From Tricharina praecox (Eukaryota), in contig NW_026250405.1 of NCBI RefSeq assembly GCF_024521635.1, forward strand, positions 186,001 to 250,000: DNA of 64,000 nt. The letters are read 5' to 3'. A program made the position numbers and the translations under genes. Below, one piece after another: positions 10,155-59,487 of the stretch. Each line of letters starts with the position of its first letter. Position 1 is the first letter of the stretch. Below the pieces are notes generated by a model. That model made no database searches. It saw only the letters and a program-made list of their open reading frames with translations, and had not been told where the DNA came from.

Positions 10155-12722
10155 TCTGGCCTAACTATGGGTTGATGTCGAGTATGTAACTGGAGTCGAG
10201 TCTTGTCCAAGGTTCCAACCGCGGTCCACACAGAAGGCGATAAGGACACAGAGGGAGGGCAGTGTTCAAACCCGTTGAAGGGGGGGACGGCGGGGATCTT
10301 TAACTGCGAAGCATTTTTGAATTCACTCGGTGGTGCAGGGGCAATATCAAGCACTACTGCCCCAGACGCTAGCGTCTGCGATTGGGGAGGCATGTAGCTA
10401 CTCTGCGGCCCATGCTAGCAAGCCGCCATCACGCATCGCCGAGTATGGGGTAAAAGCCAGAGTGCAACACAGCACCGAAGAGCGAAGAGCGCAGCGCGAA
10501 GCAAGCAAGCCAACCGCCAACCGCCAGGGATTGGCGACGGCGGACGGTGGATATTCTCCACCACTGAGCAGACGGGTTTCCAGCCCATCCTTGTCTGCGA
10601 CACGGTTATTCGCAAGCAGCGGCGTCGACTTTCGGCATGTGGGTACGTCGGTTTTTTCGGCGGTGGGAGGCAGTTGCCTGTTTTGCGACCATTCGAACCC
10701 CCCCCCCAGTTCGGGCTAGATGCGACGGTCCTCCGCATTCCGCCTAGAGGATCCAGGTATCAGTGGTACATACTGACCTACTCTACTTTATACCCCACAT
10801 TGCTCGCGACGTCGGTACGCCGAGTAGGAGCCAATCCTTGTCGGAAACATTCAAGTATCGAGTGCAGAAAACGTGGTATGTACACAACGGGCGCTTGTGG
10901 GCAGCAGCAGTACGTGCGTGCGGAGGTACATACATGGAGCAGATGCCTTGGGTACGCCCGAGACAGCGATCGTGACATATCGGGCTGTGTTATAGGTGGC
11001 GGTGGATGGCTGTGTATGCGGCACTATCTCGAACGACCTATTCCTCACCGTTCTGCCGGGCCCCACATCGTATGCAGTCCGGCATTGGGCTGGCGCGCGT
11101 GCACGATCGTATGTATGCACCGGTATTGGTATCGACCCCTTCTCGCCGGCCTCGTGATCTCGTGATCCCAGCTCACCCCGTCGAGGTCGGAGGAATGAAG
11201 ATGGAGCTTCACTCCCGAGCTGACCAACATACGTCCTGTAACCTGCTGCGGGAGTGGACGCATCACCGCAGCGCTCCAGCATCGAGATCCAGCAGCGGCA
11301 ACGAGCGTCATGCAGCCGCGCAAGGGAAGCGCACTTCCTTCCACCGCACTTCGCACTTCGCACTTCGCTTCAAGACATGCAAGGCTGCCTGCTGCTGCTG
11401 TACGGTATCTGCGGCAGTTGCCCGTGGCGCGAGAGCCCTGGCTTCATATCTCAGACAGCTGGAGTACCAGTACATAACCTCCCGGGCTCTATTGGCCATT
11501 CGCTCAACCAAGCCATCAGCCCCATCACCATTGGTTTCCTAATCTTCCCCACGGGGTCCGAATCCCGGGGAAGCCTGTCTTACTGTGGCGGCACCATCCC
11601 CGCAGTATTAAAAAACTGCGGGGTGTAGTGGGGGGTGGGGTGGGGGGAGGTTTAGTTTGCGCGGCACAGATATATATCTAAGCCCACTTCTTCACTGGCC
11701 CCCTTGGGCCCTAGCTTCGGTACCGCAATCTTGGTGGTGGTGATGCAGATGGCAGATGCGCACGTCAAAGCTGTGGTTGTGTGGTGGTTGTGTGGTCGTG
11801 TTACACCGCGGTAAGTTTCGGCCCGGGGTCCATAACCACCGTAACCGGGGGGTGGGAGAGGTGTGTGCTACTGTAATACCTAGACCCTGGATGGTTTTTG
11901 TTTCTTCGTTGTAACTTGTAAGAACTTCGCGTAAGCTTAGGTACCGTACATACCTGTATCTGGACTTATGTATTCAGGTATCCTGTTGACGGTAAATAGA
12001 CGTTCGGTCTGGTAACCCACCGCCTAACCCGTGACCACTGGCAACGACGCCTGGCCTGGCCTGGCTAAGTCATTCGGCTGCGCTTGCCTATCTTGGTACT
12101 GCCGAGTGATGGGCGGTGATATGGAATGAGTGGGAAACGGTGAGGGAGGAGTTGGTCGAAGGATCTGGCTATATATCATAGGATACGTTCGAAATCTACA
12201 CCCGCTTACAGAGATCGCTGTGGTGGATAGTAACTATGGGTATGTACGAGCCTGAAGTTCTAGTATCCTACAATCACAATCCCTTCAACCATCTCCAACG
12301 TTTCCGCTTGATGCATGATCTGCGCTTAGGGAGAGCAATGGGGGACTAGATCCTTTCCTTCGATCACGAGGCCACTACGGGGGAATATTTGCCCTTTCCC
12401 TTGCCCTTTGCCCTTTCACCACAGGCTACCAACGATCGCCCGGCAACCGAGAAAGCCTGAAGCCCCTCTGACCAGCAAGAGTACACCTCCTCCTCCTAAT
12501 GTACACAGTTCACACTCGCCTCCCTCCCGCACCTCGTATGCATGTAGTAGCAGTAGCGTCGGTGCTAGAGTTTACACCAATCCACTGGTCGAGACGGTCA
12601 GACAAGACTTGAATGCTCGTGTGGGGTACAGGTATACCGGTACATATCATCATATCCCGTTTTCTTCTTTCTTCGTTATGCTTCACCAAGGATGGATTGA
12701 TGGATTGAGGATTGATCACCTA

Positions 12723-12765
12723 CCTAGCATCTAGCATCTAGCATCTAGTATCTAGCATCTAGCAG
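12723..12765 (+). repeat. (TCTAGCA)n 7-bp tandem repeat
   Basis: ctagcat ctagcat ctagcat ctagtat ctagcat ctagca seen directly. Confidence 0.85.
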
Positions 12766-14645
12766 CTAGCAGCCAGCTTTGTAGCATTGGGTCAAGATCT
12801 CCAGAGTCCAGACGGCAGACGTACCGTACCTACTACCTAGCTGGCCTGGGGGCGGGAGAGCTGAGGTGAGGGTGTGGAATAAGATTTCTCCGCCACCCCA
12901 GGTCACCAGGGGGTCCGGCAGTAGGCGTGCCATATTACGAGTACATATTACGAGTACATAGATACGTAGATACATAGATTCATACCGGTAAAGTTGGTAG
13001 ATACTAGAGAGATTCAAGAGTTCAAGAATGCTGGGTTGGGTTGGGTTGAGTTGGCAGGTTGGCAGGCTAGCAGATACTTACTACCCCACATTTCGCAGTG
13101 TTCTTACTCCTCCTCCTCGGACTCAGAAAATGTGATTGGTCTCAGGAGCTTCCAGCATTCTCTGCGGTGGCGACGTAGAAAAGTGCAACAAAACCACTTC
13201 TGGAATGGTCGGAATGGTGTGATTTGTGTGATTGGTCGTCGGCGAGTGCGTACTCATATCATGTATGATGTACTTACCTACATGGAATCTGGATTTTCCC
13301 CGGCTGGAAGGCCGGTGATACTACCTACCCACCTACCTACATCCTACCTGGTATGCTTGAAAAGCGTACTTACGTATGCGGCCGCAGGTCCACAGGCCCA
13401 CAGCACTCCTGGTCTTTACCGAATCGGACTGGACGTGTGTAGGTACATAGCCTGTAGGTGATCTAATCTTCAGCTAGCCAGCATGGCGGTGGATGGCGGT
13501 GGATGGCGGTGGATGAACGATGGGCCTGTGCTGTGCTGTGCAATGATCGTTATCGCCGCACTGTCCTTGTCTGTCCTTGTCTGTCCTGGACTCCTGCACT
13601 CCTGGTGGGCCCGTCGGGGCCGTAACTGGTTTCGGACTCCGGAGGAGAGGCTGGGTTTGAGCGACTGCAGGCGGTAAGAAGACTGTGGGATCTTTCCGTG
13701 CTGCAGACGAGCTCCGTGATTGTGTCTGCTGGGTTAGCGGTGAGAGAGATGGATGGATGGATGGTTGGTTGGTTGATGGTTGTCGGCGGTTACTGTTCGC
13801 ATCCGGCATGAGTGGATATTTGTTGTCGATTCGGGTTTGGCTGCCACCTAGGACTCGGGAGTCGATTGCACCCCTTGCGAGTGCCGTTGATACTCGGAAG
13901 CCAAACCTCATGTACTGATATCTCAATTGACTAATAAAGGACGTATGTACATGCATGGTGATGGCTGCGTATTCGTATCCATCGCCGGCTCGACTTCTAC
14001 TACTGGTAGGTATTCTACCATGCACCTCACCTGAAGGCTGAAAATATTCGAGGCTGGCCGGCTTTACATTGCATTATGTAGGTACAAAGTTTTTACGCTT
14101 AACCGCCCAAGGGCCAAGAAGATGTGAAGGCCAGTGATCCGCTGGTCAGTTCCCTGGCCAGTAAACAATAAATCAATGTTAGCGTACCTAGCTACTAGAG
14201 ATTCTATCCAGAGTGATATCTTCCTGGGTGTGGAACATTTCCTTTCTCGGCGTTTGGCGGACTTGATTGTTAATCGACCGCTTACATGAATCCGTCTAAT
14301 AGGTAGAACGGGTCGGAACTTGCCATCCGTAGGCATTATATAGTACCGGTACCGGTACTGGCATAGCTGGCAGATTTAGACTTTAGGCTGTAGACTGGTA
14401 AAAAAGAGAGATCTTCAGTTTATTTCGCACGCAGCCTATCTAGAAAGGCTGTAGACTGGTTAAGCGCGGGCCCAAATACATGGTATGTAGGTGCTCTCGA
14501 ATAGTAGTGGTATCTTTGCATACCGATGGTCCAGCTGCCAATTCCCAGCTCCCATGCCCAAAAATTCCTACGATAGGTATCAGCGCTGCTATCAAAGACT
14601 ATCGAAGTCCCGATGGCAGACAGCTCGTCAAGTACGGTATGTACT

Positions 14646-14809
14646 TCTTATCTAATAGAGACCGAGCAACGTCCAGCAACGTCCATCGCGCTCGCCTCGT
14701 CGCCGAAATTGGCGCCGCAACCACCCTCTCCTCCCTCTCCTCCCTCCCCGACATCTCGGCAAGCGCGCTAAGCGATGCGCTCGGCCCGGGCAACGCTCGG
14801 TAAATCTTG
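14646..14809 (+). mobile_element. Candidate degenerate non-autonomous mini-Helitron
   Basis: 5' TCTTATCTAATAGAG; 3' hairpin CCGGGC-AAC-GCTCGG followed by TAAAT-CTTG; 7-bp subterminal inverted repeat ACCGAGC/GCTCGGT. Both termini are imperfect. Confidence 0.3.
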
Positions 14810-16631
14810 GCCCCACCCCACCGTAACCTTACAGCCGGCCGGCCGACACCCGGCCGATCCGGGGGTGCTCAGCCATTAGCGAGATCTAACTACCGTAGGT
14901 ACTCTAGTGCGGCTGTTGGCGTGCACTGGACTGGACGCAACGGCAGAACATCCCGGAATATAGTAGTCGCGAGCTCGCGAAGGTTTACTTGGGTAGCCTG
15001 TCGCTTCTACGCTGCTGCGCAGGAGGGAGGGACCGGGGCGTGACGGTCGTCGAGGAGGGAGGGACGTCGGTGGTGAGGGGTGAGGGGTATCGCGTCGTGT
15101 GGCGAATATGCCCCGCCAGACTACCTACGGAATGGGCCATGGTTTGCGAGTAGCATCGTGCATTGTCGCCCTGCTTCTAGACTGGCAATGATATCTTTCC
15201 TCAGCTCGATCAATCCGATCCGGCAACTTTGAACTTGCGCACGTACGCGCCCACCCACGGACGGCAGCACGTCGCCTTCGTGCACTCGCAACTAGGCAGT
15301 GGCATGAGGGAGCATCCATTATCCTCACGCGGCGTGAAGCTTTGTAATTGACAATCTCTCGAAGGTATCGAGCCGGTGAAAATATCAGATCGGAGAAAAG
15401 CCTGAGCACCGCGACCATTCGCGAGGAGTTCAACTTGTGCCGCCTGGTACGAATAGGAGTACATAACCTGATACACAGGTAGGTAAGGCGTGTATCCGTT
15501 CCACGGCAGAGAAAAGGCTGCAGAAATTGGGTATGCGTACATCAAGTAGGTAGCGGCTGCTCGTATAACCTGAGGATCTCCAAAGAGTGTGGGTCATGAT
15601 ACATACGACTGTTTCAGCTGTGCCGTGGGTCTTCCTGACGCTAGTTGATGGTTCTTCGCAGTCACAGCCATCGGGAATAAGCAATGTCTCGGGTAGATGT
15701 GGGATGGTGGCTCTGACACATGAACCTTCTGGACGTGAAGCGGGGATAAAACGTGACGTGAGAGTCGTGCCGTTCATTATCTAGAACTTCTCGCACGTTG
15801 TCATAGAACTGACCGAGAAATTCACTCTTGGATGCACTTGGATCTACCAATTGTCAAATCGCCGTCAACTGGTGGATGAAAGCGTAAAGGAATATACGCC
15901 TTGTAGGTGACTTGTATACCATCATCATCCACTGTCGCGTTGGTCAGCTTGGAAGGATGAGAATCTGTGATTGCCCAGTGTGTTGAGGCTTACCGTCACG
16001 TGACCGATCGCCATTCGCCCTCCGCCACCCGCCCTCCGCCTCCTTTGCCAACCAGCTCAAACAAGCGATGTTTGTTCCAAGGGCAATTGTCTCAGTTCAC
16101 GATGTGCGAAATGTGCTTTGGGAGCTGAGGGAGTCTGTAAGGAGCTGATAGATCGTGACGTAAATCCTGTCGCCACATGGGCGCGCCGTTGAAGGAAAAC
16201 AGGAGGTCGAAGTGCAGCTGCGTGTTACCGTCCCTTTCCACCATCCTTCCTAGAGACTCCTTCACATCTGCATCGACCCTAATACCCGAACCCCCATTCA
16301 TCTCGGTCGTTCACACCCGCCACAAACCGCCATTCTTTTCGATATTGCTGCTTTAGTGTGACGCTTCCTTGTTTCTTTGTTTCTTTGTTCTCCAAAGTCC
16401 CCAATCGCTCCTCCACTCCTCCAACCCGTCGCGTTTCCCTTTACCCTTTGCAAGTCCCTCTCAGTCTCTCACTGAGCTTTCCCTACCAACAACCATCTTC
16501 TCGAATCGCGTCGTGTCGTCGTCTCTTCACTGGTCGTACCGCGATTCCTACCGAGCGGCACTCGGTCGTCACCCGACTTCGTTAGCCTGTAGAAAAAGAC
16601 CGACAGGCGACAAGCTTTTTTGAGCCGCACG

Positions 16632-19088
16632 ATGTCGCTGCTTTCGCCCCCAGCCCCCGCTACTCCCGTCCACAACAACCAGCAGCACCCACCGCACCTA
16701 GCCAGCATCTTTGCCTCGGGCGGAACATCGAATTCGTTCCAGACACCAAGCAGCACGCCGATGCAGGCTCCGCCCGATAAGAACGCGCGGAGAAAGTCCC
16801 TCGGTGGCGGAAGCGGCGTCGGGGGAGCTGGAGCTGTCGGAGGTTCGGCGGGTTACCGGCCCGTGGCTTATCGTACGGCTGGTATGTCTAGCCCGGGGGA
16901 TTTGCTTCGTTGATGGGTGCTGGGGCTTGTGGGTGCTGACGAGGTGATGTCTAGGTGTTAGGTTAGCGTGCCTCGTTAATGCTTCGGTGACGGTATGCGG
17001 CGACGACTCGATATACGCGTTCGGCGGATTCGATCAGTATACGGACGAAGGTATGTTTGGTGGGGTTCGGAAAATGGGAGGTTATAACTGTATAAGGCTG
17101 ACTCCGGGAAGTCTTTAATCACGTGTTAAAGCTAGACCTCAACACGTATACCTGGACCCTCGTGGACAACTATGGTGACATTCCTAGTGTTCGAATGGGT
17201 ATGTACCCCGCGGCGAGATGGGCTTGGGGTGTCTAGCTGACGGGTTATAGGCCATACCACAACGTATTGGAAGGAGAACAAACTGATCATCTTCGGCGGT
17301 GAAAACGAGCAACGTGTATTTTTGTCGGATGTCTACATCTTCGATATCCCAACGGCGACCTGGTCACAGCCAGTACTGTCCGGCTATCCTCCGTGCGGCC
17401 GGTCGAGGCATGCGGTGGTGCTACATGACGACAAACTCTTCGTTCTGGGCGGAATCCACCATGTTGCGCAGGCCGATTTCGACCCAGAGGACACCGAATT
17501 CAACCCGCAAGAAGTCCTCGATGACATCTGTTACCTCGATCTCAAAAGTATGACATGGAGTCGGAGTTGGCGGTGGGTTGCGCGGTTCGATCACCAGGCA
17601 TGGGTGCGGAACGGAAAGCTGTGGATATTTGGCGGTATGGGCAAGGAGATGGATAGGACTGGAGAGTTGATATCGCTGGATCTCAGCCATCCGGTATTTG
17701 CAAGGACAGATGTCAAGCAGGTGGGATACGCAACTCGACAGGCGCGCGTGACGGCGGATGCTACCAGTGGTCAAGGTCGCGTCCTCAGATCACACCGCTC
17801 ATACGGTCCGAACTCTCCTCGCCCTGTTTACGCCCAACGCCGCAACACCCCACCGCCAAAACAGCACCTCGTTCCGGCAACGTCGTCATCGGTTCGCTTC
17901 CTCCTGAGCGAACACATTCCCTCCGAGGCTCATGGAACCCACTTCCATCACATCTGCGGCAGCACACTGCTCGACTTTGTCACCTACGCCAACTCCATTC
18001 GGACCGCCGAGACCGGTCTTTCGGCTCTCAATCTCCAGGACATGACGTGGCGGAAGATTGCCGATGGCATTGACATGCTTGGTGGCGCAAACTGGCGATG
18101 GCATTACCTCGCAATTTCACCGAACTCGGCGACGGCTTATCTTTTGGGTTGCCCCATGGATAATGATGAGATAGGAGATGGCGAGGAATACCTTTCCGAC
18201 GTCCTCCCCATCGATCTCACCCAATTCGGCGTCCATCTGGAACAGGAACCTGGCGATACTCCTGCAGGCGGCATGCTCGGCTCGGACTTGGCCAAAGTTT
18301 TTGATACCGAGGATTCGGGTTGGGACTTCACCATCCGTGCGATGAAGGACGAGGCCGCCGAGGGTGACGAGTGGGATGTTGAAGGGATGTGGGGACGAAG
18401 TATGATCAACAGCCCTGACGCCTCCGGTCAGACGGCGGAACAACGGGAGGACGATGACCTCCCTCCAGAAAATGTTATGGGACCACCGATCCGCGTTCAC
18501 AAACTTATATTGCTCACTCGCTGGCGTCATTTCCAGAGCCTCTATAACTCGAGGATGAGGGAGTTCCACCGCGGTCGACTGTACCTTCCGGAGCCCTATA
18601 CCGTCGTTAGAGCATTCTTGTACTACCTCTATTCCGACTCAATCGCGAGATCTCCCTTCTGTCCAGATATCTCCGTGGTCGCAGGCCTGCTTGTCATGGC
18701 TAACCTCTATGACATCACACGCCTGCGATCTCTCTGCCTAAACCGACTCTATAACGAGCTAGACGTGGAATCTGCCGCCGTGGTCTGGGAGAGGGCGGGA
18801 GTCGCCGGCGAAGACGCGCTGAGAAGGAAAGCCGCCACCTTTGTGCTGACCTCCTGGGGTCGCGTGGTACGCACACGTGGGTTTCGCCGACTAAGCCGCA
18901 GGAGTCTAATGGAGCTCTGCGAGGAGGTTGACGAGGAAGGGCGTGTGACGGGAGGCGATGAGATGGGCTGGGAGGGGAGTTCACCCGGCACTCCCGTTGG
19001 ATTCGCAGTCGGCTCCACCGCTACGGAGCTAGCCAGTGAGGGCGGCGGTCCCCCAGATGAGAATGATGAAGACGAAGAGATGATCTGA
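16632..19088 (+). CDS. Kelch-repeat + BTB/POZ protein (LZTR1/Ral2/Mds3-like), 4 exons
   Basis: Kelch blades ACLVNASVT..IYAFGGFD, RMGHT..LIIFGGE, GRSRH..LFVLGG and RFDH..LWIFGG; BTB signature DFTI...IRVHKLILLTRWRHFQSL...FLYYLYSD. Three GTATGT...CTGAC...AG introns between 16882 and 17250. Confidence 0.93.
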
Positions 19089-31910: not shown

Positions 31911-32296
31911 CTAGCTCATCGGGAGATGCCATGAAGGGGGGTGTAGGAAGGAGCAGCGGAAGTGGCCCCAGCTCATCAACCTCAGCGCCCTCTTCCTCCT
32001 CCTCTTGTCTCTTCTCTGTCTGCATCTATTCTCGCTCCCTGAGCTTCCACCCGGGCACCTTACTTGCTGCCTCTTCCTCAGCGACCTCCGGGATCCGCTT
32101 GCTCACATCAGTGGTAACGAGAACCTTCAGGATAGCTTGGCTGCACCCCTCGTATGCGAAGAGGTCACCGATCCTGAAGCGATCCTTGTCCCTCCCCCTC
32201 TCTTTCCGGACCTCTGCGCACAGGATCTTCTGTTGGCTTTTCCCCTCGGGGCGACACTTGAAGAGGTGCACCTTCGTCCACTAGAGGTACTGGCCC
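31911..32296 (-). mobile_element. 5'-truncated, degenerate non-LTR retrotransposon (Tad1-like LINE) ORF2 C-terminus
   Basis: GQYL*WTK..HLFKCRPEGKSQQKILCAEVRKERGRDKDRFRIGDLFAYEGCSQAILKVLVTTDV..WKLRERE..LPTPPFMAS resembles the post-RNase H region of Pezizales LINEs as I recall them; contains stops and an internal deletion. Confidence 0.7.
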
Positions 32297-32335
32297 GCAT
32301 TACGGATAGGTGGCGGTTGTGTTGGAGTTAAGCTT

Positions 32336-39892: not shown

Positions 39893-42383
39893 AGGGTGGG
39901 GTAGTTGTTGGCTGGTGGGGAGAGGGGGTGGATTTTTTTTTGTGCGCACCATATGCGTGATTTTCCTAAATTTACTTTTTTTCCGTTTCATCTTTTACTT
40001 GCCATGTAACGCATAAGTGTACTCATAGACTGTGACGGCTCCCTCGCTGTGAATCTGCCGAGCCGTCCCTCAGTGGGAACGCCGGCTGGTGGACCGTAGA
40101 ATATTCCATAATCCGATGGTATGTATTATTTAAGTAGCTGTTAGATGTTCATCGTCAGAAGGGTCCCAGACGCCGAGGGGAGCCGAGGGAGAGAGTGCCG
40201 GTTGCGGGTAACAAAGAGGGGGAAAGACATCAAACTCAGGGTCACGGTTATCAAGGACGAGGTCAAGGCCGATGTAACGCGCAACTTCCAGCACCTACAG
40301 ATCCACTGCTCAGATCACTACATAACCCCTCCCCTCACCCTCCATCTACTTCTCAAAGCTCAAGCACACCACTACGTCCTCAGCGTCACATGGAGTCGCT
40401 CCCGCTAGACATGTCCGCAACTAAGGTGGCCGTGATTCTCGTCGGAATTCTCTTGCTGTACTTCCTCATATGCATCTGTTCGGAGATCGCCATCAAGGCC
40501 GGCTTCAGCGTCGATGGTGATGTCGACGTGGTACGTTGCGTCCTGGCTGTGCATGTGCCTTTGTTTGTCATTTTTGCTTACGGAAGAATCATGGAACTCC
40601 AGGACAATCCTCATATTCACCAGGGCGAAAGGACGCATTCACGACGGAGAAATACGGGATGTCCAGCTGTAAGGGAGAGAGGACTTCGATTTATTTGGAT
40701 TTCTCGCTTTAGAGAGAGAGAGAGAGAGATCTTCAGATCTTCCTGTTTTATTTAAAACTTGGAGCCGGCGAGGGAGAGAGGATGTCGATTGCGGGGCTAT
40801 GACCGAATTGACTGATGTCCTGACAGAGACCGTTCATCTAGGTATGTAAGTACATAGCTTATCGTTAGTGTCGTTGAGCTGGGTAGCCTATACGTACGCA
40901 AGGAGCGCTTGATAGGTAGGGGAAATACACATCATACAACAGGAACAGGGTTCGAAATGGGTGCTTCAGACTCCGGTGTCGGCGTGGCTCAAACATTCGC
41001 CGAATCTCCGTCGGACCCGGGAGGAGTCGTGACTCGTCACTCGTGGCTATCGCGGTCAGCAAACGACCAACTTCGAGATCAGTCGAACTCACGGTTCACT
41101 ATCAAGATGAAGGGTAAGCGGCAGGCTGGAGAGTCTTCTACCAGATACGAAGAGGCCACCAATGACTTTCTATCTATTGGCACCTGCTCCTACCTAACTA
41201 TCCTAAGACTGCTCACATCCCATCTACCGACCCTCATCCTGGCTGATGGACGACCACTGTAGTAGTACTCCATCTCGACGTTCCTCCAAACAGTTTTGCG
41301 TGGCGCCCTCGAAGTCCCGGCGGTGGCATGCGCTGTTACCCTCCTCGTGCTCCGGACGACCGCCATCCTCAGCTCCTGCGTGACGCTGTGTTTTGTGAGT
41401 TTTTGCGGGTCTTTCATCACGGTACTCGGCACTGCAGAGTGGACTGCGAAAGTTGCGTATACGGTACTGTGGGATGGAGAATCCGAGTTTTTGTCGGTGA
41501 ATGATGGTCGGCGAGAAGGCGGATCACGAAAGGCCATGGTGCCAAAATCTGGCATTTCTTTTTGACTGAATGTTTGAGCTGCTGCCTCAGCGTGGGCACT
41601 CATTTGATAGCATGCTTATGACCCAAGCCCTCGCCCTCATGCTGAAAAACGTTATCATACTTATTACATAGCGTAGAGTGTCGTGCAATATTGGACGTTC
41701 AAGTCGAGTGGAGCAGTGCCTCGTTTTAACAAGACAAAATACTACCAGTGCTCAGAGCTTTTCTTTTGTCCTTAATTTTATATCATTTATGATCCCACCT
41801 ACGCTGGGGGATAGTGAGAATCACAGTGTCCCCTCAGGCGAACCATCGAGGCAGCTTTGTAGTGAACAGGGAACAGAATCTGTATGTACTTCAAATTGTC
41901 AGGCGGCGCGCGGCCAGGTGCAGAATTATGAAACAAAACCTTAGGATCGCCAATCCTATGATAACCCCAGGACTAGGTATGTAGTACGACCGTTGGAATA
42001 TCTACTAATAACTCTATTCTTCCTTCCGAAACGACGAAAGTTCCTCGGAAAGATGTTTCAACCCAAGCCAAAGCCAAACGCGACGGCCGTGCCAGATACG
42101 GACTCCGACGGATGGCCACAGGACTGGCCGAGAGCTCCGAAGGCCTCGCTCATTGTTTCGAAGGGGACATTCTACCCAGGGCTCAACAGTTTGATTTTTT
42201 CGATCGTGTACCTACTATCATAGGTACATATCACCACTTTCCACAGTGCGCAAGTTCCGGTCTCGACTCTCGTCCGTACATCCCGGTAGTTAACCAGGTA
42301 GGCCCTATGATATGTACTTGGCTGACCACTGCAGTAGATAGGTAATTCTTCAGGGATCCGAACTCTACTTTGGACCACAACTA

Positions 42384-42557
42384 TCTACTAGTAATAAAGC
42401 ACCTGGTCAGCGCCTCTGCCTGCATACAATCGCGGCAGATGGACGGCGGATGATCAACTACCTGCGTCAAGCTGGCGAATCCGGAGACTTTCTAAATTCT
42501 ATATAGATGTTCGTTTATGGTAGGTGTGTGCGGAGCGCTAGTTGGTTAACCATCTAG
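42384..42557 (+). mobile_element. Candidate degenerate non-autonomous mini-Helitron
   Basis: A|TCTACTAGTAATAAAG 5' end; GCG-GAG-CGC remnant hairpin; CTAG|T at 42538-42542 and a second CTAG at 42554-42557; starts where a coding-like frame (GSELYFGPQL) stops. Confidence 0.3.
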
Positions 42558-45500
42558 AGTATGTATCTACCGGGACTTGCCGGCGCGCCGACCGGTTCGG
42601 GACTTGTCTCCTCTTTCAGCCGCCCCCGAGAATCCCGACTTGGCGTTTGGGTTGGTTTTGCTGGAGATCCGTGGTCAAGGCAGGTTGCGCCATCAACCGA
42701 TAGCTCCGTGAGAGGGTTTCTTCAGGAAGGCTGTTGATATGCACACTCTCGGGTCCATGCATACACGCGGGAACAATTATTATATCGGTGAAACCATATC
42801 GATCGCAGAGTCACGGTACCGGTACTCTATCTAATGACCACCTAATCTGATCTCTTTCGATCTTGGCTCCTGTTAATCCATTATCTTCTGCCCAGAAACA
42901 TCGCGAGGAGGATTGATCGAAATCGTCAGCCCCCACGTCTCCCCGTTGCCATTCCCGTTCTCCTCCTCGTCCTCTTTCGAAAGGCCTCGCGAGCACCCTG
43001 AAATCTACCCTACTGCCAACTTTTACATCGGCCCGTCGACCGATATTGGGAATAACTCGACGGCGGGATACCTAAATACTTCAACGCATTGCCTTAGCTT
43101 CCGGCGGCAGCGGGAGTCCGCGGATGTCGCGTCCATCTCCCGGGTGTGCCCTGTTTCAACCTCACACCTACCCCGCTGAACCAGGATGCTCGAATGCCTA
43201 GCTCTGGCGGAGCCACGGAGGTCCGGTCTCGAGATGGATCCGAAATGTCTTCCGGGGATAGTGAACTAACCCCGTCACCGGTGCCTTGCGGCTCCCTCCT
43301 CTATCTCGGAGTCGTGCTTTCCCGCCGGGGCTCCAACTTCCAAGTACCTACATACACAAGGATCTTGCCTACGTACTACTGCCTTGTGGCTGTACATACC
43401 TATTGGGAATACACATCGTCGATTCACATCCTTTTCGCCGAGCGCCGAGATGTGGGGTTATGACGTGGCATGTTGTGTTGTGGCAGGAATGGCTGCCGTT
43501 GACGCCGTACTGAGGGAACTTTTAAGGTTCCGATGTATATCACAGGCTCTGTCCATGAAACTGCTTCCCTCTAGAGGACTGACGTATGTAGAGTCCAGCC
43601 ACTTTTGAAGTCATATAGATTTCTAGAGTGGTAACTAATCCGCCACTCTGTCGATCTCAAGCACTATTTCCAGTCTTGGACCAATGTTGAATTCGCAATC
43701 ACAGTCGATTTCGGGAATGCATCCATGGGCTGTTTTTCGATATCCGACAAGCGCGTTACTAGGTATCTGCAACTTTTCAGTTGGGAGTCTTGAACGTACT
43801 CTTCTGTTCTTGCTCATTCGTTCACTGGCAGATTGGAGGATGTCGTTTTTGAAAATGCTTGGACCTCGACAGGGCTGGAATGGTTCTAAGTAAAATCGGC
43901 GATTCTCCGGAACATCCGCTAGGACTAGGTAGTTAGTTGACCAGGTAGCTATATGCCTGGTAGTTAGCATGGTCTGGAACCAGAATCCAGAAAACCACGA
44001 CTACGCCTTGTGCGTGTTCCTCGGTCGCGATTCGGCCCTCTTTCTCAAAGAGCAATGGGCAGGAACACTTGAGCGTGGCGCCAGTAGTATCTCAGATCGC
44101 TCCGGAAGTAAAAAGCTCCCTATGTACTTTTAGAATAGATTATCAATAATAGATCAACATCGAAGAGACAGTGTACCTACCTATCTCTGGAGGCACGACA
44201 CGGCAAGCAGCTGTGCGTCCAAGCAGTCGTTCAAATATAGAAACCATTCGCCGCACTGGTTGCGTGTGTGCGTGCCTGGGTGCGTGGGTGCGTCCGCTGA
44301 CGATGCTCCAGAAAAATCCATTCTGGATGCCGGGACCGTGTTCCGGTGGCACGAGAAATTGGGCGGCACAGTGAGTGGAGAAGCATGTAGTACATCTGTT
44401 TGTTTCTGGGAGAATGCGAATTAGATGGCGCACGGCGGGATCGACAAAACTAATAGCTTCCTAGACCTTTGCTCGGCCGCGGAAGTCATTGAAAGCGGCG
44501 GTCAGTGGTTTATTGTAACGTCGGAGTAACATCCCTGCCGAGTCCGGAGGTACATACCATTGGCAATAGGTATCGGCGGTGTCGCCTGGCCGTGGCGATT
44601 CACACGAGGCTATCGTGATGGGAAAGAAAAGAGTAATGGAGGAAGGTAGACGCAAAATTTTCGACGAGCAGGACCGCGTTCTTCGGGATGGAAGGGGCAG
44701 AGACATGGCGTATCGGATGGCTCTGGGAACAAGTCCACCCTAAGAAGAGCGACTCCCGATGCTTCGAGGGATGAGGTGTTGAAAATGATGAGCGAGTCTC
44801 GCGTTGTTTGTCGAGACTCGAGAGGTCGGAAGGAATGAGTTGTTGCGGTTGTTGTAAGGCTGGTCCGAACTAAGCTTGTACAGCTCGGATACCCAAATAG
44901 GAATACAGTGTTGAGAATCCGCTCGGAAAATCCGCTCTACGTTAGCAACACCTCACATCTCATTCTCACATCACCCACCGCCCTTCTGTCCTAAACGCCA
45001 TGGAGCCACCCACCATCCGACCTTGAGAGGAGGAGTCCCGGGAATTACGCCTCGTTCGTCATTACAGTTGCGAGATTACACAAGAAATTCAAGCTAACAA
45101 GTATAGATACCACTCCTCGGGGAATCGGCGTCATCGACTTGGAGGCGACCGGCGACTGTGGCCATGAGGTGTGACACGCAGGTTAGCTCCAGATGAGCTC
45201 GATAATGCGGCTTAGGATGTCCTGAAGAATTTTCGCTTAAAGGATTTGAGTCGGATATCGGTTTTCCAGGGGCCATCCTATGCACCTCCTATGCACCTTC
45301 TGGTTATACATATACTTGCAACGGGCCTCGTGTGGTTCAATACCGACTACATACGAACATGGCTCGCTTAACCCGGCCAATACACAGGAAGGCAGCTTCG
45401 GACGGAGTCGCTGCGGGAACGCGGGCTGAGGGCGGCATATCGCTTCTCTTCCCTCCACCGACCCTTCAGCATGACGAACCCGTGGATCATTTCCAGCCCA

Positions 45501-54497: not shown

Positions 54498-55507
54498 ATG
54501 AGCTTCAACCTGCCTATCCGCCACCATCCCCTGTCTCGAAGGTATATCGTTAATCCTACGAGGCACTGTTTTACTTGTTTACTGATCTTCCTAAATCACA
54601 GCAACCGCCGTACTGGAGACCTTCGAGGACAAAACAACTCGGCTAGGGGAAGAGGTCGTGATAGATATGACTCTAGTCGTCCCCGACGGAGGTATATCCA
54701 TCACTCTCGACTGCTATTCCATCTGATTCAATTGTTTCCGTAGGGCTAGATCTTCAAGTCCCGTCAACAATAGGTTCCAAAGGCTGGTTGTATTCGGAAA
54801 CTCGAGACAGGAACCCTTCCGCCTTCGAACCAGGTCACTCCCTTCGCATACCCCCAGTATTCAGTGCTCCGCTAACACCACTCACCAGGTCTGCTAGCCC
54901 GGCCCGTATCCAGGCTACCCCCATTCTAGCAGAACCACGATACAGCTGTGACGGCTGCGGAACCCAGATTCCCATTGGCAGCACGTGCCCGTTCTACCCT
55001 CACAACGGATCTCCTTTGGGTGTCATAAAGCTTTCGAACCCTCGCAAGCTACCTTCCTGGCAAGCTAGGTGCCGTTCGAATGCTCAGTCTGTTACTCCTG
55101 GTGGCAATAATGTCCCGCAGGCGGAGACTCAGCCGCCTCTCCAAGGTATGGGACACGGCCAGTCGCTTTCGGTCCCCATGAAAAGCGAGAAATACCGCGA
55201 CGCTCCTCGTGCAAGAGGTGGTGATATCCTACGTCCTCGCAACGACAATAATCGGATCAACAAAAATCCGCAGCCAACACCAGTACAGCGTGCACCAGTA
55301 CAGGCTGCACCACTTCGCCGTGGCGAACTTTCCCCCAATCTGAAAGCGTGGCAGGAGTTGGTTATCGCCCACCGGCAGACCTACGGAGAACTCGAACCCA
55401 GAAGGCAAGCCGCGCAGGCCGATCACTGGACTACGCAAATGGGTCAGTTGAATATCCAAGAGTGTGGAGACCGTGCTTCCACTCCCGGAAGGTTCATGGA
55501 AGAGTGA
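54498..55507 (+). CDS. Hypothetical Arg/Pro-rich protein, at least 4 exons, with a CxxC...C...H motif
   Basis: Three introns join in frame (MSFNLPIR...|...|...|RSASPAR...YSCDGCGTQIPIGSTCPFYPH); a last intron may move the stop to about 55623. Confidence 0.6.
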
Positions 55508-56027
55508 GTTGAGTTAGACTTGTGTTTTATTGATACATTAACGAGTGTTCGGCCTACATATTTACCAGGCTTATGCGAACGGTTGGAATTGACTTTATTA
55601 CTTGTTGGTTTTCTAGGGGATAACATTGTTACAGGGAGTCTTGATACATGATTACTTGCTTCGATATGTTTCTTTTGCTTCTGTGAGCTCTGGCCGGAGT
55701 TTATGAGAGGAGTCCGTATTTTTTCTGTGTTTTTTTTACTGATGAGCTCTATTGGAGAGTGGATGAAGAATTTTTGCATTGTACAAGCAGTTTGGGATTC
55801 TGTGTATTGTTACTGTGTATGCGCTGTTATTTCTGTATCTTACTCGGTGTGGCTGCGGAGTATCGCCAATGGGAAGCGAGACTTCAATTGTAACTTCGGT
55901 ATCGTCATGATCATGGTTTCCACTTGATATCACCTGCCACTACACCAATGACTGAAAGATACCGAAGTAGTATGGAAAGAGGAACGTCCATTTATTTTAT
56001 ACATGATATGGTCCCAACCCCAACAAA

Positions 56028-56850
56028 CTAAGAACTAGACATGCCGATTCCACTCTCTCTGTGCTCTGTTCCTTCCTCCGGCGCGCGGACCACACCATGC
56101 AGCGCCGTCAACTCCGCCTGTTTACACACATTTTCAGTTTGCCATTAGAAGTAGTGAGGAAAGAAGGAGACTCACGAGATTGTAGAGCAGTGTTCTGTAC
56201 GTCTGGGCACAGACGCTCGGGCGGGTGGTCTTGAAGCTTAACCGAACCAGGAGCAGCTCGTAGATGTCCGCGTTGATGCGGTACACGGTCTCCAAAACCT
56301 CATCCGACGTGAGCAGAAACTCGGGGCAGTTGAGGTCACTCCTCATCATTTCGAGAAGAGGCACCAGCTGTGCCATCCGTTAGCATCCATCAGAAAATCA
56401 GCAAAGGAGATAGAAGTGAGTGCATACAGATGGGCAATCATTCTCGTCCGGCAATTGCGGGCCGTGGAAAGGGTCCGGTTAGGAAAATTCCCCAAGAATG
56501 TCCATCAGGACACGAAACCGGTGGATAGCCACCTTCAGATCCTCTGTGAGGGTCCACGGGTCTTCCACAGGCCAAGCGCGGATAGGAGGATCCGGAGGCT
56601 GCTACTTGGTGATCAACTTGTGGTCTGATTCTCGCGAGAGTCCCTAAGTCTCGCGTTCCTCGCGGGAAAGAGGGATCTCCTTGGGGGCAAAAACATCCTC
56701 CGGCCAAGCCCTGAAGAATGACATACCCATCGCCGGAGAGGTGGGACGAGGGGTGGACTCCTCGGCGTTGACGGAAGAAAGCTCGACCGCAGCGACAGAA
56801 GAAGTTTCGGGAGGAGTAGTCTCGTCGGCAGGAAGAGAATTGTCCGCCAT
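56028..56850 (-). pseudogene. 3-exon orphan gene with three in-frame stops in exon 1 (pseudogene or editing-dependent gene)
   Basis: Single frame from the ATG with TAG 56646-44, TAG 56604-02 and TAA 56481-79; two canonical phase-0 introns and open exons 2-3. Confidence 0.6.
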
Positions 56851-58030
56851 GGGGAGATTGAGCTGGTCCGTTTTGTTATAAGGTATCGAAGAGATGGGAG
56901 GGGTCTTCTTGGTGTTTTTTGTGAGTGGAGTTTCGATGCGGTGGATGAAATTGATTCAGACAGAGGGAGGAAGGGATGAAAGAGAAGAAGGAAGGATGAT
57001 AGGAATTTAAGGTTGAGAAGTGTGGCATGACGGTATCTGTTTCGGGAACAGTGTCGGGACACAGGTACGGATTGTCGGCACCAGCCTTCTCCGACTGACC
57101 AGGAAGCACTGCGTTTCCGTGCTTTCAATCCTCTCAATTCCTAAGCGAAGCAAACGCTTTGAGAGAATGAGAATGAAGTGACATAAAACTGCCCCGAGGA
57201 CTCAGTAAATCTCTCTCCTTTTCTTTATACTTCTATACATGTATGTACTAATTCCTCCACGGTTGTCTCAGCCGCATCTGAGAGATTCCACGGAGATTTT
57301 CCCCCCCACTGTTCAGATCGAGCAACAGCTGCAGCAAGTTAACATATCTTAACAGAACCACCGGAAATCTCGAAGTACCAGTCAATTCAGCTGGAAAGCC
57401 CAGTGCAGATTTGAACTCTTTTTTTTCCTCGACTTGTGCGACCATACTTTCCGACGTTAGGGCTGCTACCCGAGCGAGCGAGTGACCACCTGGGATGGAA
57501 ACTGGGAAACAGAGTAGTAACTACTTGAGGGTCTTCCACGACTCAGTTCCAACTTCACAACAACAACACCGACAACAGCAACAACAAAAATACCTACAAC
57601 AAGAGAAAAAACGACCGCTTGGTCCTCCCACTCCAGTCAACATCACCTCTTGGCCCTCGGCGCCATGTACGTTCTCCAGGGCTCCGCTATTCGCAAGAGT
57701 ACTACACCCTGTCGAAGTAAGTATGGCAGTCGGTGCTATCTATAGAATACCCTCAGCACTTGGGTTCGATCGCCAAACTTCCACATCTTATGCATCACTT
57801 TCAAAGGTCGTCGCTGATATCGGCATTCTATAGATGCATCGTATTTATATCCAGCTCACTGCTCGGCCCGACCTTCCAGCAATACTTCTCCATCAACCAT
57901 CACCCTATTGCAACGTCGAAAATAGCAAGAACTGAGTACCAAACCAGCAAGCTTCATTTTCAACTGTATTTCTACAACTCGGCCAAGCTAAATCGTTCCG
58001 GTACATCTCGACAACACAGCACAAAGAAAG

Positions 58031-58435
58031 ATGTCCAATAATACCGCCTCACGTCCTTCGAGTCCCGCAGACAACAAAGACGCGCACTACCAAGAGCGTC
58101 TGGCCAACTGCGTTAAGGCCTTGCGTAAGTTCCGCTTCCCTCTCTAGAGATACCACTTACTGACTTCATTAGAATCTCGTGACGAGCACATCGCCGAAGT
58201 TGCTGAATTTACAGCGGCGGTTAAGGCTAAGAAGGGAAAGATCCCGAAGACGAAGGTGCTCGATGCCCAGAAGGGCCGCGTGAAGAAATGCCGCGTCAGG
58301 AAGAGCCGCGCCAAGAAGCCCAAATGGGAGGAGATGTCTAAAGAAGAGAGGGACAAGGTTGTCGAAAAGCGATACGAAAAGGCGGGGTTCAAACTGCCCG
58401 TCAGTGGAAAGGGGGCTGGATCTGAGGCGGAATAG
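58031..58435 (+). CDS. Small Lys/Arg-rich orphan protein, 2 exons
   Basis: MSNNTASRPSSPADNK...VKAL|GTAAGT...ACTGAC...TAG|QSRDEH...KGRVKKCRVRKSRAKKPKW...EAE*. Confidence 0.7.
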
Positions 58436-59487
58436 TTTCCGCGCGATTGTTATATTTTTGCGTCACTTTTCTAGTGTTATTTGAAGAGCGATTTCGCCCG
58501 TTAAAGTTCTTGTTTTGGAATACACTTTTTCATTTATATCGTAATGAGTACTATCCATTACAATAGGCATTTGGGTTACAGAATATCATGCAATTCACTT
58601 CAAAACTAGGACTATGCCATTGCCATATCCCACTTACATATACCATCCATTAAACCCAACACGAAACGAAGATGGGTGAGTCGCATCGGCTAAGGACACA
58701 CTAAACACCACAGGCCCACAACCCACCGTCAGCAACCCCTGAAGGATCCGATCAGCCTGCAAAAGAATAGAGGAGATAGGAGAGTCGGCGGGCACGCGCA
58801 TATTTCGAGTCTCTCCCATACCACCCTCTTTCCGGCTTGAAACACCATCTCGAGCTTCTCGACCTACCAGGTAATTTTCTGCTTCCGGGCCTGGCAGCTC
58901 CGTGAGTTCCGTGTTGATGCAATTGCTGCAGACGTAGATATTGCAGGGGCAGAGACGATTGCAAACGTGGGTCGTTCAGCTTATTTGGAGCCGTACGAGC
59001 GCATGTGGAACGGGGTCGGCCAGAAGGAGGAGGGTTAAGCTATTGCAGTTGGGCCGACTGCCGCTATTAATTCGAGAAGATGATATGGGCAGTGTTCGGC
59101 TTTGATGCTACTAAGGGCGCACAAGATGTCATTTCATAACAACTCAACGTAACTAGACTACACCGCTCGTCTTTCAGTATTGTAGACTGTGCAGGTGTGC
59201 AGTGGAGTTGAGTCGCGCTTAAACGAGCCTAGGGCAAAGAGGGCCTACTCATTGCCTCGTCTTGGCATAGACTGGCACTCGCCCTTTCTAGTGAAACAGC
59301 GCAACTCTACTTCTTATGCAATCCAAATACTTAGTCTTCAAGCATCTGATACCTTCGCCACATGCGCCGTCCCTTGTTTGCACTCGTCGAATTGAAAACA
59401 GCAGGATCGTCCCTTTCCGTTCATATTGAACGTCTAGCTCAAGGGTCCACGACAGGACATATAAGTACCCGCGGCGGCTGAACATCG

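Follow-up and report, generated by a model that had tools for sequence, protein, structure and literature searches.

A conserved ascomycete gene with three premature stop codons and no other lesion, possibly a young unitary pseudogene

The 64,000-nt stretch of fungal DNA analyzed here (contig NW_026250405.1, positions 186,001 to 250,000; hereafter the window) carries on its minus strand, at 56850..56028, a three-exon gene whose first exon is interrupted by three in-frame stop codons. No lesion was found in its start codon, splice sites, reading frame, or terminal stop. Comparison with metagenome sequences identifies the locus as a real gene, because three contigs (L001–L003), which stem from a moderately distant fungus, carry its syntenic orthologue. 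The same comparison identifies the copy in the window as the derived, stop-bearing state, because the orthologue is intact and collinear, shares the intron positions, and has a second exon of equal length. There is about an even chance that the locus is a young unitary pseudogene created by ordinary point mutations, or that the gene is currently on its way to loss. The gene model, the orthology, and the placement of the stops can be read directly from the sequences; that the three stops go unrepaired is what we infer.

The gene starts at ATG 56850, the first ATG downstream of an in-frame stop located 5' of the gene, and its spliced sequence of 705 nt consists of 234 codons and a stop, without frameshift. 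Exon 1 (56428..56850; 423 nt, 141 codons) encodes a disordered-looking N-terminus (residues ~1–45) rich in Ser, Thr, Pro, and Glu; its conserved part extends from about codon 46 to codon 141. All premature stops lie in this exon: a TAG at codon 69 (56644..56646, with the A at 56645), a TAG at codon 83 (56602..56604, with the A at 56603), which is located immediately 5' of the best-conserved motif (PPIRA), and a TAA at codon 124 (56479..56481, with As at 56480 and 56479). Intron 1 (56368..56427; 60 nt, GTATGC..GCTAAC..CAG, phase 0) and intron 2 (56118..56175; 58 nt, GTGAGT..CTAAT..CAG) are both canonical and enclose exon 2 (56176..56367; 192 nt, 64 codons), which is predicted to be helical. Exon 3 (56028..56117; 90 nt) contributes 29 codons and the terminal TAG (56030-56028); its tail is poorly conserved, and the orthologue resembles just the first ~7 residues. 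The GC content at third codon positions (GC3) is 0.62, 0.80, and 0.63 in exons 1, 2, and 3, and the GC content of the two introns is 0.45 and 0.40.

An earlier note on this DNA had located the ATG, the three stops, both introns, and a GTATGT at 56726, all without frameshift, and each of these coordinates was confirmed on the minus strand. The GTATGT (56721..56726, minus strand) is a cryptic motif within codons 42–43 of exon 1 and does not serve as a donor in the conserved gene model. It represents the sole possible entry into the +1 frame, which is open across exon 1 for 145 codons (56875..56438), lacks an ATG, and has no similarity to the orthologue. This frame is probably a by-product of composition. 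Because it is open over the same stretch, the openness of the gene's own frame would not be evidence in its own right.

The orthologue was found with a read-through query (P0004), which comprised exon 1, intron 1, and exon 2 with an X at each stop. A phmmer search with this query against 1.84 billion representative proteins yielded four matches at E ≤ 0.001. Two of them are open reading frame (ORF) fragments from a 3,455-nt Logan contig that are 100% identical to the window: P0005 (68 aa) starts at ATG 56850 and ends exactly at the first stop, and P0006 (80 aa) covers exon 2. A third match, P0008 (E = 3.1e-4), is a repeat protein with five repeated stretches and was judged spurious by eye. The fourth, P0007 (238 aa; phmmer E = 1.1e-07), is identical to the query at 49 of 154 positions in a pairwise BLASTP alignment (E = 2e-13) that covers all three stop positions. 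P0007 is located on contigs L001–L003 and is an ORF call running into intron 1 of the orthologue.

On contig L002, exon 1 of the orthologue comprises 207 codons without any stop and shows 34% identity with exon 1 of the window. Its intron 1 (58 nt) likewise begins with GTATGC and is located at the homologous codon boundary. Exon 2 of the orthologue also has a length of exactly 192 nt, with 25 of 64 residues identical to the exon in the window (39%; in a tblastn search, 49% over 45 aa, E = 9e-09), and intron 2 (60 nt) occupies the same position, both introns sharing GGCAAACTGA near the branch site (by eye). The region from 2.8 to 20.5 kb of L002 is collinear with the region from 64.0 to 48.0 kb of the window, where neighbouring ORFs are 40–76% identical, and the orthologue ORF has a single match in the window and no second copy. 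All conserved sequence lies 3' of the first stop. The three contigs are nearly the same: over 3,000 nt, the alignment of L002 with L001 contains 3 gap openings and 2 mismatches, 1 of which lies in the gene, and L003 is identical over 1,949 nt. This variation is too slight for a selection test, and the divergence between the orthologues is saturated.

Searches for further relatives were negative within their respective size ranges. Exon 1 with Trp at the stops had no matches among proteins of 77–247 aa, P0007 recovered itself alone in the range of 130–417 aa, and the read-through query returned nothing beyond the two ORF fragments of the window itself in the range of 30–122 aa. Pfam contains no family for the pieces of the gene or for P0007, and the protein atlas had no usable match for exon 1 of the orthologue. 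The structure predicted by AlphaFold2 from a three-row alignment (mean predicted local distance difference test score [pLDDT] 44.5, predicted template modelling score [pTM] 0.25) was too poor for a fold search; its rough pattern is that of a disordered N-terminus with several helices after residue ~98. With no Pfam family and one distant orthologue as the sole relative found, the proposal that this is a structurally intact orphan gene was borne out. The same is true of the claim that the stops interrupt coding sequence, since the orthologue codes through the same segment.

The N-terminus of the orthologue is about 66 residues longer than that of the window. It contains an internal tandem duplication (L002 10001-10330, residues ~30–105) of a unit of ~35–40 residues rich in Val, Ala, Ser, and Glu, as judged by eye, and the disordered N-terminus therefore appears to change length quickly. 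A pyrimidine-rich tract is located 5' of the ATG in both orthologues (window 56960-57000, L002 9930-9985). The two tracts share TTTCATCCACC (by eye), which may be a conserved element of the core promoter or the 5' untranslated region.

If the locus is indeed a young unitary pseudogene, the window would contain the local version of a gene that is small, evolves fast, and is confined to filamentous ascomycetes. Such a gene would encode a protein of ~234 residues, in which a disordered N-terminus is followed by a helical C-terminal half. The gene would have been functional in the ancestor shared with the fungus that carries the orthologue, and in the lineage of the window it would have been knocked out when exon 1 acquired three nonsense point mutations independently of one another. 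Translation of an unedited mRNA would end after 68 residues, ahead of every conserved segment, and with two introns 3' of the stops, the unedited transcript would probably be a target of nonsense-mediated decay. The locus resembles ordinary unitary pseudogenes in that the disabling mutations affect a single-copy gene in conserved synteny, lie 5' of all conserved sequence, and stand opposite an intact syntenic orthologue.

Unlike ordinary unitary pseudogenes, however, the locus has kept its reading frame, its splice sites, its start codon, and a strong coding composition. The lack of indels and of lesions in splice sites or the start codon, which would be signs of relaxed constraint, fits either a very recent loss or continued selection. 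Three observations weigh against a pseudogene. First, the coding-type composition of the stop-bearing gene is still strong when GC3 is compared with the GC content of the introns. Second, the pattern of damage is difficult to obtain by chance. In a simulation of neutral decay, in which a stop-free coding sequence was substituted at random (transition bias 2 or 4), a median of 101–117 substitutions (0.14–0.17 per site; 5–95% range 28–294) was needed before three in-frame stops coexisted. The joint chance of no frameshift together with an untouched ATG and both GT..AG pairs was 0.5–7%, a value that depends on assumed indel-to-substitution ratios of 0.03–0.12. Under this model, three stops with nothing else broken would be unusual for neutral decay. 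Third, all three stops are of the UA type and none is a TGA, although the expected probability of a TGA is 0.22–0.28 per nonsense hit; this point is a weak one. The stop pattern is nevertheless not extreme, because the locus was picked from a very large scan for exactly this look.

It is improbable that the gene serves through a product that requires no recoding. Such a product could be the N-terminal peptide of 68 residues, a C-terminal protein of 87 residues whose translation starts at the Met-Met in exon 2, or an isoform from which the stops are spliced out. In favour of this reading, the start codon, the introns, and the terminal stop are all intact, and splicing from a donor-like GTGGCT at 56532, which is in frame, to the acceptor of intron 1 would skip just the TAA. 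The 68-residue peptide, by contrast, contains no conserved sequence, and the orthologue translates the segment that bears the stops. Splicing was explored by enumerating every GT..AG intron within exon 1. All eight single introns that would rescue the frame have donors that match the consensus at four or fewer of six positions and lengths of 252–429 nt, and the best among 132 rescues with two introns combine the GTATGT at 56726 with GAG or AAG acceptors and a second weak donor. All of the enumerated rescues remove sequence that is translated in the orthologue; the introns involved have poor signals, or are four to seven times longer than real introns, or delete the conserved segment PPIRA..AIH. 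The earlier note had considered the GTATGT at 56726 as an alternative donor. This possibility found no support, because all acceptors tried for it lead into the +1 frame or require a second intron with a weak GAG or AAG acceptor, and the alignment with the orthologue continues in frame 0 immediately beyond that position.

Errors in the assembly or in sequencing, or a minority haplotype of a gene that is actually intact, are a highly improbable source of the stops. The window may come from, or nearly equal, environmental data, which would leave some room for such artefacts. However, three separate substitution errors within 170 nt and none elsewhere are unlikely, and the two ORF fragments of the Logan contig, one of which ends at the first stop, are 100% identical to the window; they possibly derive from the same reads and would then not be independent.

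The stops may also have been created together rather than one by one. A single burst of C-to-T changes after a transient duplication, similar to repeat-induced point mutation (RIP), would have turned CAG, CAG, and CAA into TAG, TAG, and TAA. This scenario, to which we assign a low probability, explains stops without indels. Each of the three stops is one C-to-T transition away from a Gln codon, and each transition would have occurred at CpA, the preferred context of RIP. The process may act in this genome, as a positive composite RIP index occurs elsewhere in the window. Among 158 sliding windows of 800 nt (mean TpA/ApT 0.73, mean [CpA+TpG]/[ApC+GpT] 1.13), the index is positive (up to 0.34) solely in those starting at 11201-16801 and 41601-42001; the corresponding segments (~11200-17600 and ~41600-42800) are possibly RIP-affected or repeat-derived.

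The gene itself, by contrast, bears little trace of such a process. TpA/ApT is 0.54 in the gene and 0.35 in exon 1, both below the window mean, and (CpA+TpG)/(ApC+GpT) equals the window mean in the gene (1.13) and is 1.10 in exon 1. Exon 1 contains just 7 TpA, of which 3 are those of the stops, and retains 20 CpA. With five CAR codons in frame, the chance that 3 among 3–7 hits would strike them is 0.006–0.09. In addition, no second copy of the gene is seen in the window. The RIP alternative of the earlier note is therefore not supported by the dinucleotide indices of exon 1, which would still accommodate a very light event.

The earlier note had also pointed to Trp versus Gln in homologues as a means of telling editing from RIP. 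In the orthologue, the codons opposite the three stops are CTC (Leu), TTT (Phe), and GAC (Asp), so that neither the Gln expected from a RIP-like burst nor the Trp expected from editing is present at any of the sites. The comparison does not fix the ancestral state: each of these codons is two to three changes away from the corresponding stop, and 34% identity is too low for recovering the ancestral codon.

The remaining explanation is that the gene is kept functional by restorative adenosine-to-inosine (A-to-I) editing, as in the premature-stop-correction (PSC) genes of Fusarium graminearum. A sexual-stage deaminase of the Tad2-Tad3-Ame1 type would edit the UAGs at codons 69 and 83 to UGG. That at least one of the two TAGs is edited is a tentative possibility. 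It is favoured by the conservation and otherwise intact structure of the gene and by the poor account that neutral decay gives of the pattern (the 0.5–7% mentioned above). The locus shares with PSC genes the presence of premature stops, here three in exon 1, in an otherwise intact conserved coding sequence, but not every premature stop is a UAG: two are TAG and the third is TAA.

The editing sites of F. graminearum are reported to prefer C or U at position −2, U at −1, A or G at +1, G at +2, and A or G at +3 and +4; sites with depleted nucleotides at −1 are far rarer than expected, and more than 62% of the sites lie in predicted hairpin loops (PMC9600606). The stops were scored by these rules, which may not transfer to the fungus of the window. 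The A of the first TAG (56645, minus strand) matches all six positions (U U [A] G G G A) and is predicted to lie, with a probability of 0.89 of being unpaired, in the loop of a hairpin (56622..56668, minus strand) with a 7-bp stem (CGCGAGG/UCUCGCG). In the window, 2.1% of 1,309 TAG triplets score 6/6, and among 600 sampled TAGs, 182 are located in hairpin loops and 2 combine the full motif with such a location. By Fusarium rules, the first TAG would be an unusually good candidate editing site, which is a further argument against a plain pseudogene. The stability of its hairpin, however, is unremarkable (minimum free energy −13.9 kcal/mol, z = −0.93), as 34 of 200 shuffled sequences fold as well.

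The other two stops fit less closely. The A of the second TAG (56603, minus strand) matches four of six positions and is predicted to be unpaired, outside hairpin loops; it has depleted nucleotides at −2 (G) and +2 (C) and retains the preferred nucleotides at −1, +1, +3, and +4. The first A of the TAA (56480, minus strand) also scores 4/6 and lies in a predicted stem. The second A (56479, minus strand) scores 3/6 and is located in a hairpin loop of 5 nt, with a probability of 0.79 of being unpaired; the nucleotide at its −1 position is an A, or an inosine after editing of the first A, instead of U.

The earlier note held that all three stops are of an editable UA type and would become Trp. This is tenable for both TAGs, where UAG would be converted to UGG and the first site combines a 6/6 motif with a hairpin loop, but it was not borne out for the TAA, whose second A lacks a U at −1. 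The correction of premature stops is described as a change of UAG to UGG (PMC4817773). For natural stops of F. graminearum, the same source counts 323 changes of UAG to UGG, 175 of UAA to UGA, and 5 of UAA to UAG, so that the published edits of UAA give UGA or UAG, which are still stops. It is stated elsewhere that editing of UAA to UGA keeps a stop codon (PMC11156358) and that TAA alleles serve as an experimental uneditable control (PMC10776026). In the main text of these three articles, no fungal editing event that turns a TAA into a sense codon is mentioned, and an edit of UAA to UGG is likewise unreported there.

Full restoration would require that both As of the UAA at codon 124 are edited, or that UAA is changed to UGA (followed by C) and read through, giving small amounts of full-length protein strictly at the sexual stage. 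Such a rescue is quite improbable. A single mRNA would have to undergo four edits, each of incomplete efficiency, and these efficiencies would be multiplied. A route via UGA could draw on the description of UGA as relatively leaky (PMC4817773); read-through after a change of UAA to UGA is put forward there as a suggestion and not as a demonstrated repair. The first A of the TAA resembles the sites of the 175 UAA-to-UGA events in having a U at −1, a C at −2, and an A at +1, and its editing could give UGA followed by C. Unlike the TAA at codon 124, those sites are natural termini at which a stop is kept, and none represents the repair of a premature stop. It is less of a stretch, though still unlikely, that at least one TAG is edited but full rescue does not occur, for instance in a PSC gene with two sites that later took a genuine TAA hit.

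The PSC genes of F. graminearum, such as PUK1 (PSC03) and AMD1, provide a close comparison. The gene in the window resembles them in that UAGs interrupt the frame of a coding sequence that is intact in all other respects and specific to Pezizomycotina, and its first TAG fits the published preferences at −2 to +4 and for hairpin loops. Like many of them, it would encode a hypothetical protein with a disordered region, and it is of a kind that gene callers would skip or mis-model. Among the 71 PSC genes reported for F. graminearum, 43 encode hypothetical proteins, 50 have disordered regions, and 6 contain two sites (PMC10776026), and PUK1 itself has two tandem UAG codons (PMC4817773, PMC10776026). 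The 71 genes have a total of 77 sites, and by arithmetic none of the genes counted in that article has three (0/71). The gene in the window differs in having three stops, where the maximum in F. graminearum is two, in that one of them is a UAA, and in being known from DNA alone.

The taxonomic range of the editing machinery adds to the doubt. The Tad3-Ame1 interaction that enables editing is reported to have arisen in Sordariomycetes, Pyronema is suggested to have gained editing independently, and editing was "not found in Leotiomycetes yet" (PMC11087585); on this account, it is not universal in Pezizomycotina. The Fung_rhodopsin and tyrosinase domains encoded in the window and its short introns (GT..CTRAY..AG) place the fungus in Pezizomycotina and no finer. 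When three soil metatranscriptome contig sets were compared with positions 55000-58500, sets X1 and X2 had no match and X3 had one; this single piece (33 nt at 57557-57587) lies outside the gene, and the counts have no bearing on expression.

As a plain pseudogene, the locus would represent an ordinary lineage-specific loss of an orphan gene. It would still hold a lesson for annotation, as gene callers miss the locus and just ORF fragments have been recorded. Should both UAGs be edited, it would add another gene to those that depend on restorative editing and extend the known range of the phenomenon. Editing of premature UAGs is already well described, and just the rescue of a UAA would be new in kind. 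If the UAA were overcome as well, it would break the rule that premature stops are repairable only as UAG and provide a natural setting for testing how many "locks" a switch of this type can have. With full rescue, the gene would be the first PSC gene with more than two locks and the first case of a rescued premature UAA, and it might lie in a fungal lineage where such editing is undescribed. The intact syntenic orthologue provides a ready comparison for testing any of these readings.

The surroundings of the gene include several further features. The divergently transcribed neighbour (58031-58435, plus strand) encodes a small Lys-rich protein with 52% identity over 126 aa in L002. An in-frame TAG in the tblastn alignment made it a candidate for a second stop-bearing gene, which was rejected: the gene is normal and the TAG is part of a 48-nt in-frame intron (58125-58172; GTAAGT..ACTGAC..TAG) that is also present in L002 and open there. 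A wider count of stops in tblastn alignments is uninformative, because off-frame and antisense ORFs align too. For a neighbouring ORF of 470 aa, the protein atlas gave just leads to RING or ubiquitin-like proteins with scores below 0.9. Synteny is broken between ~50950 and 54700 of the window and ~12440 and 17800 of L002, and neither segment has a counterpart in the other; that of the window holds a tyrosinase gene (Pfam PF00264, 52.5-53.6 kb) absent from L002. An ORF located between syntenic genes of L002 (7437-7781) matches a non-collinear site in the window (32059-32304) with 38–48% identity over 71–78 aa and is possibly a small piece of a gene that was relocated or is repeated.

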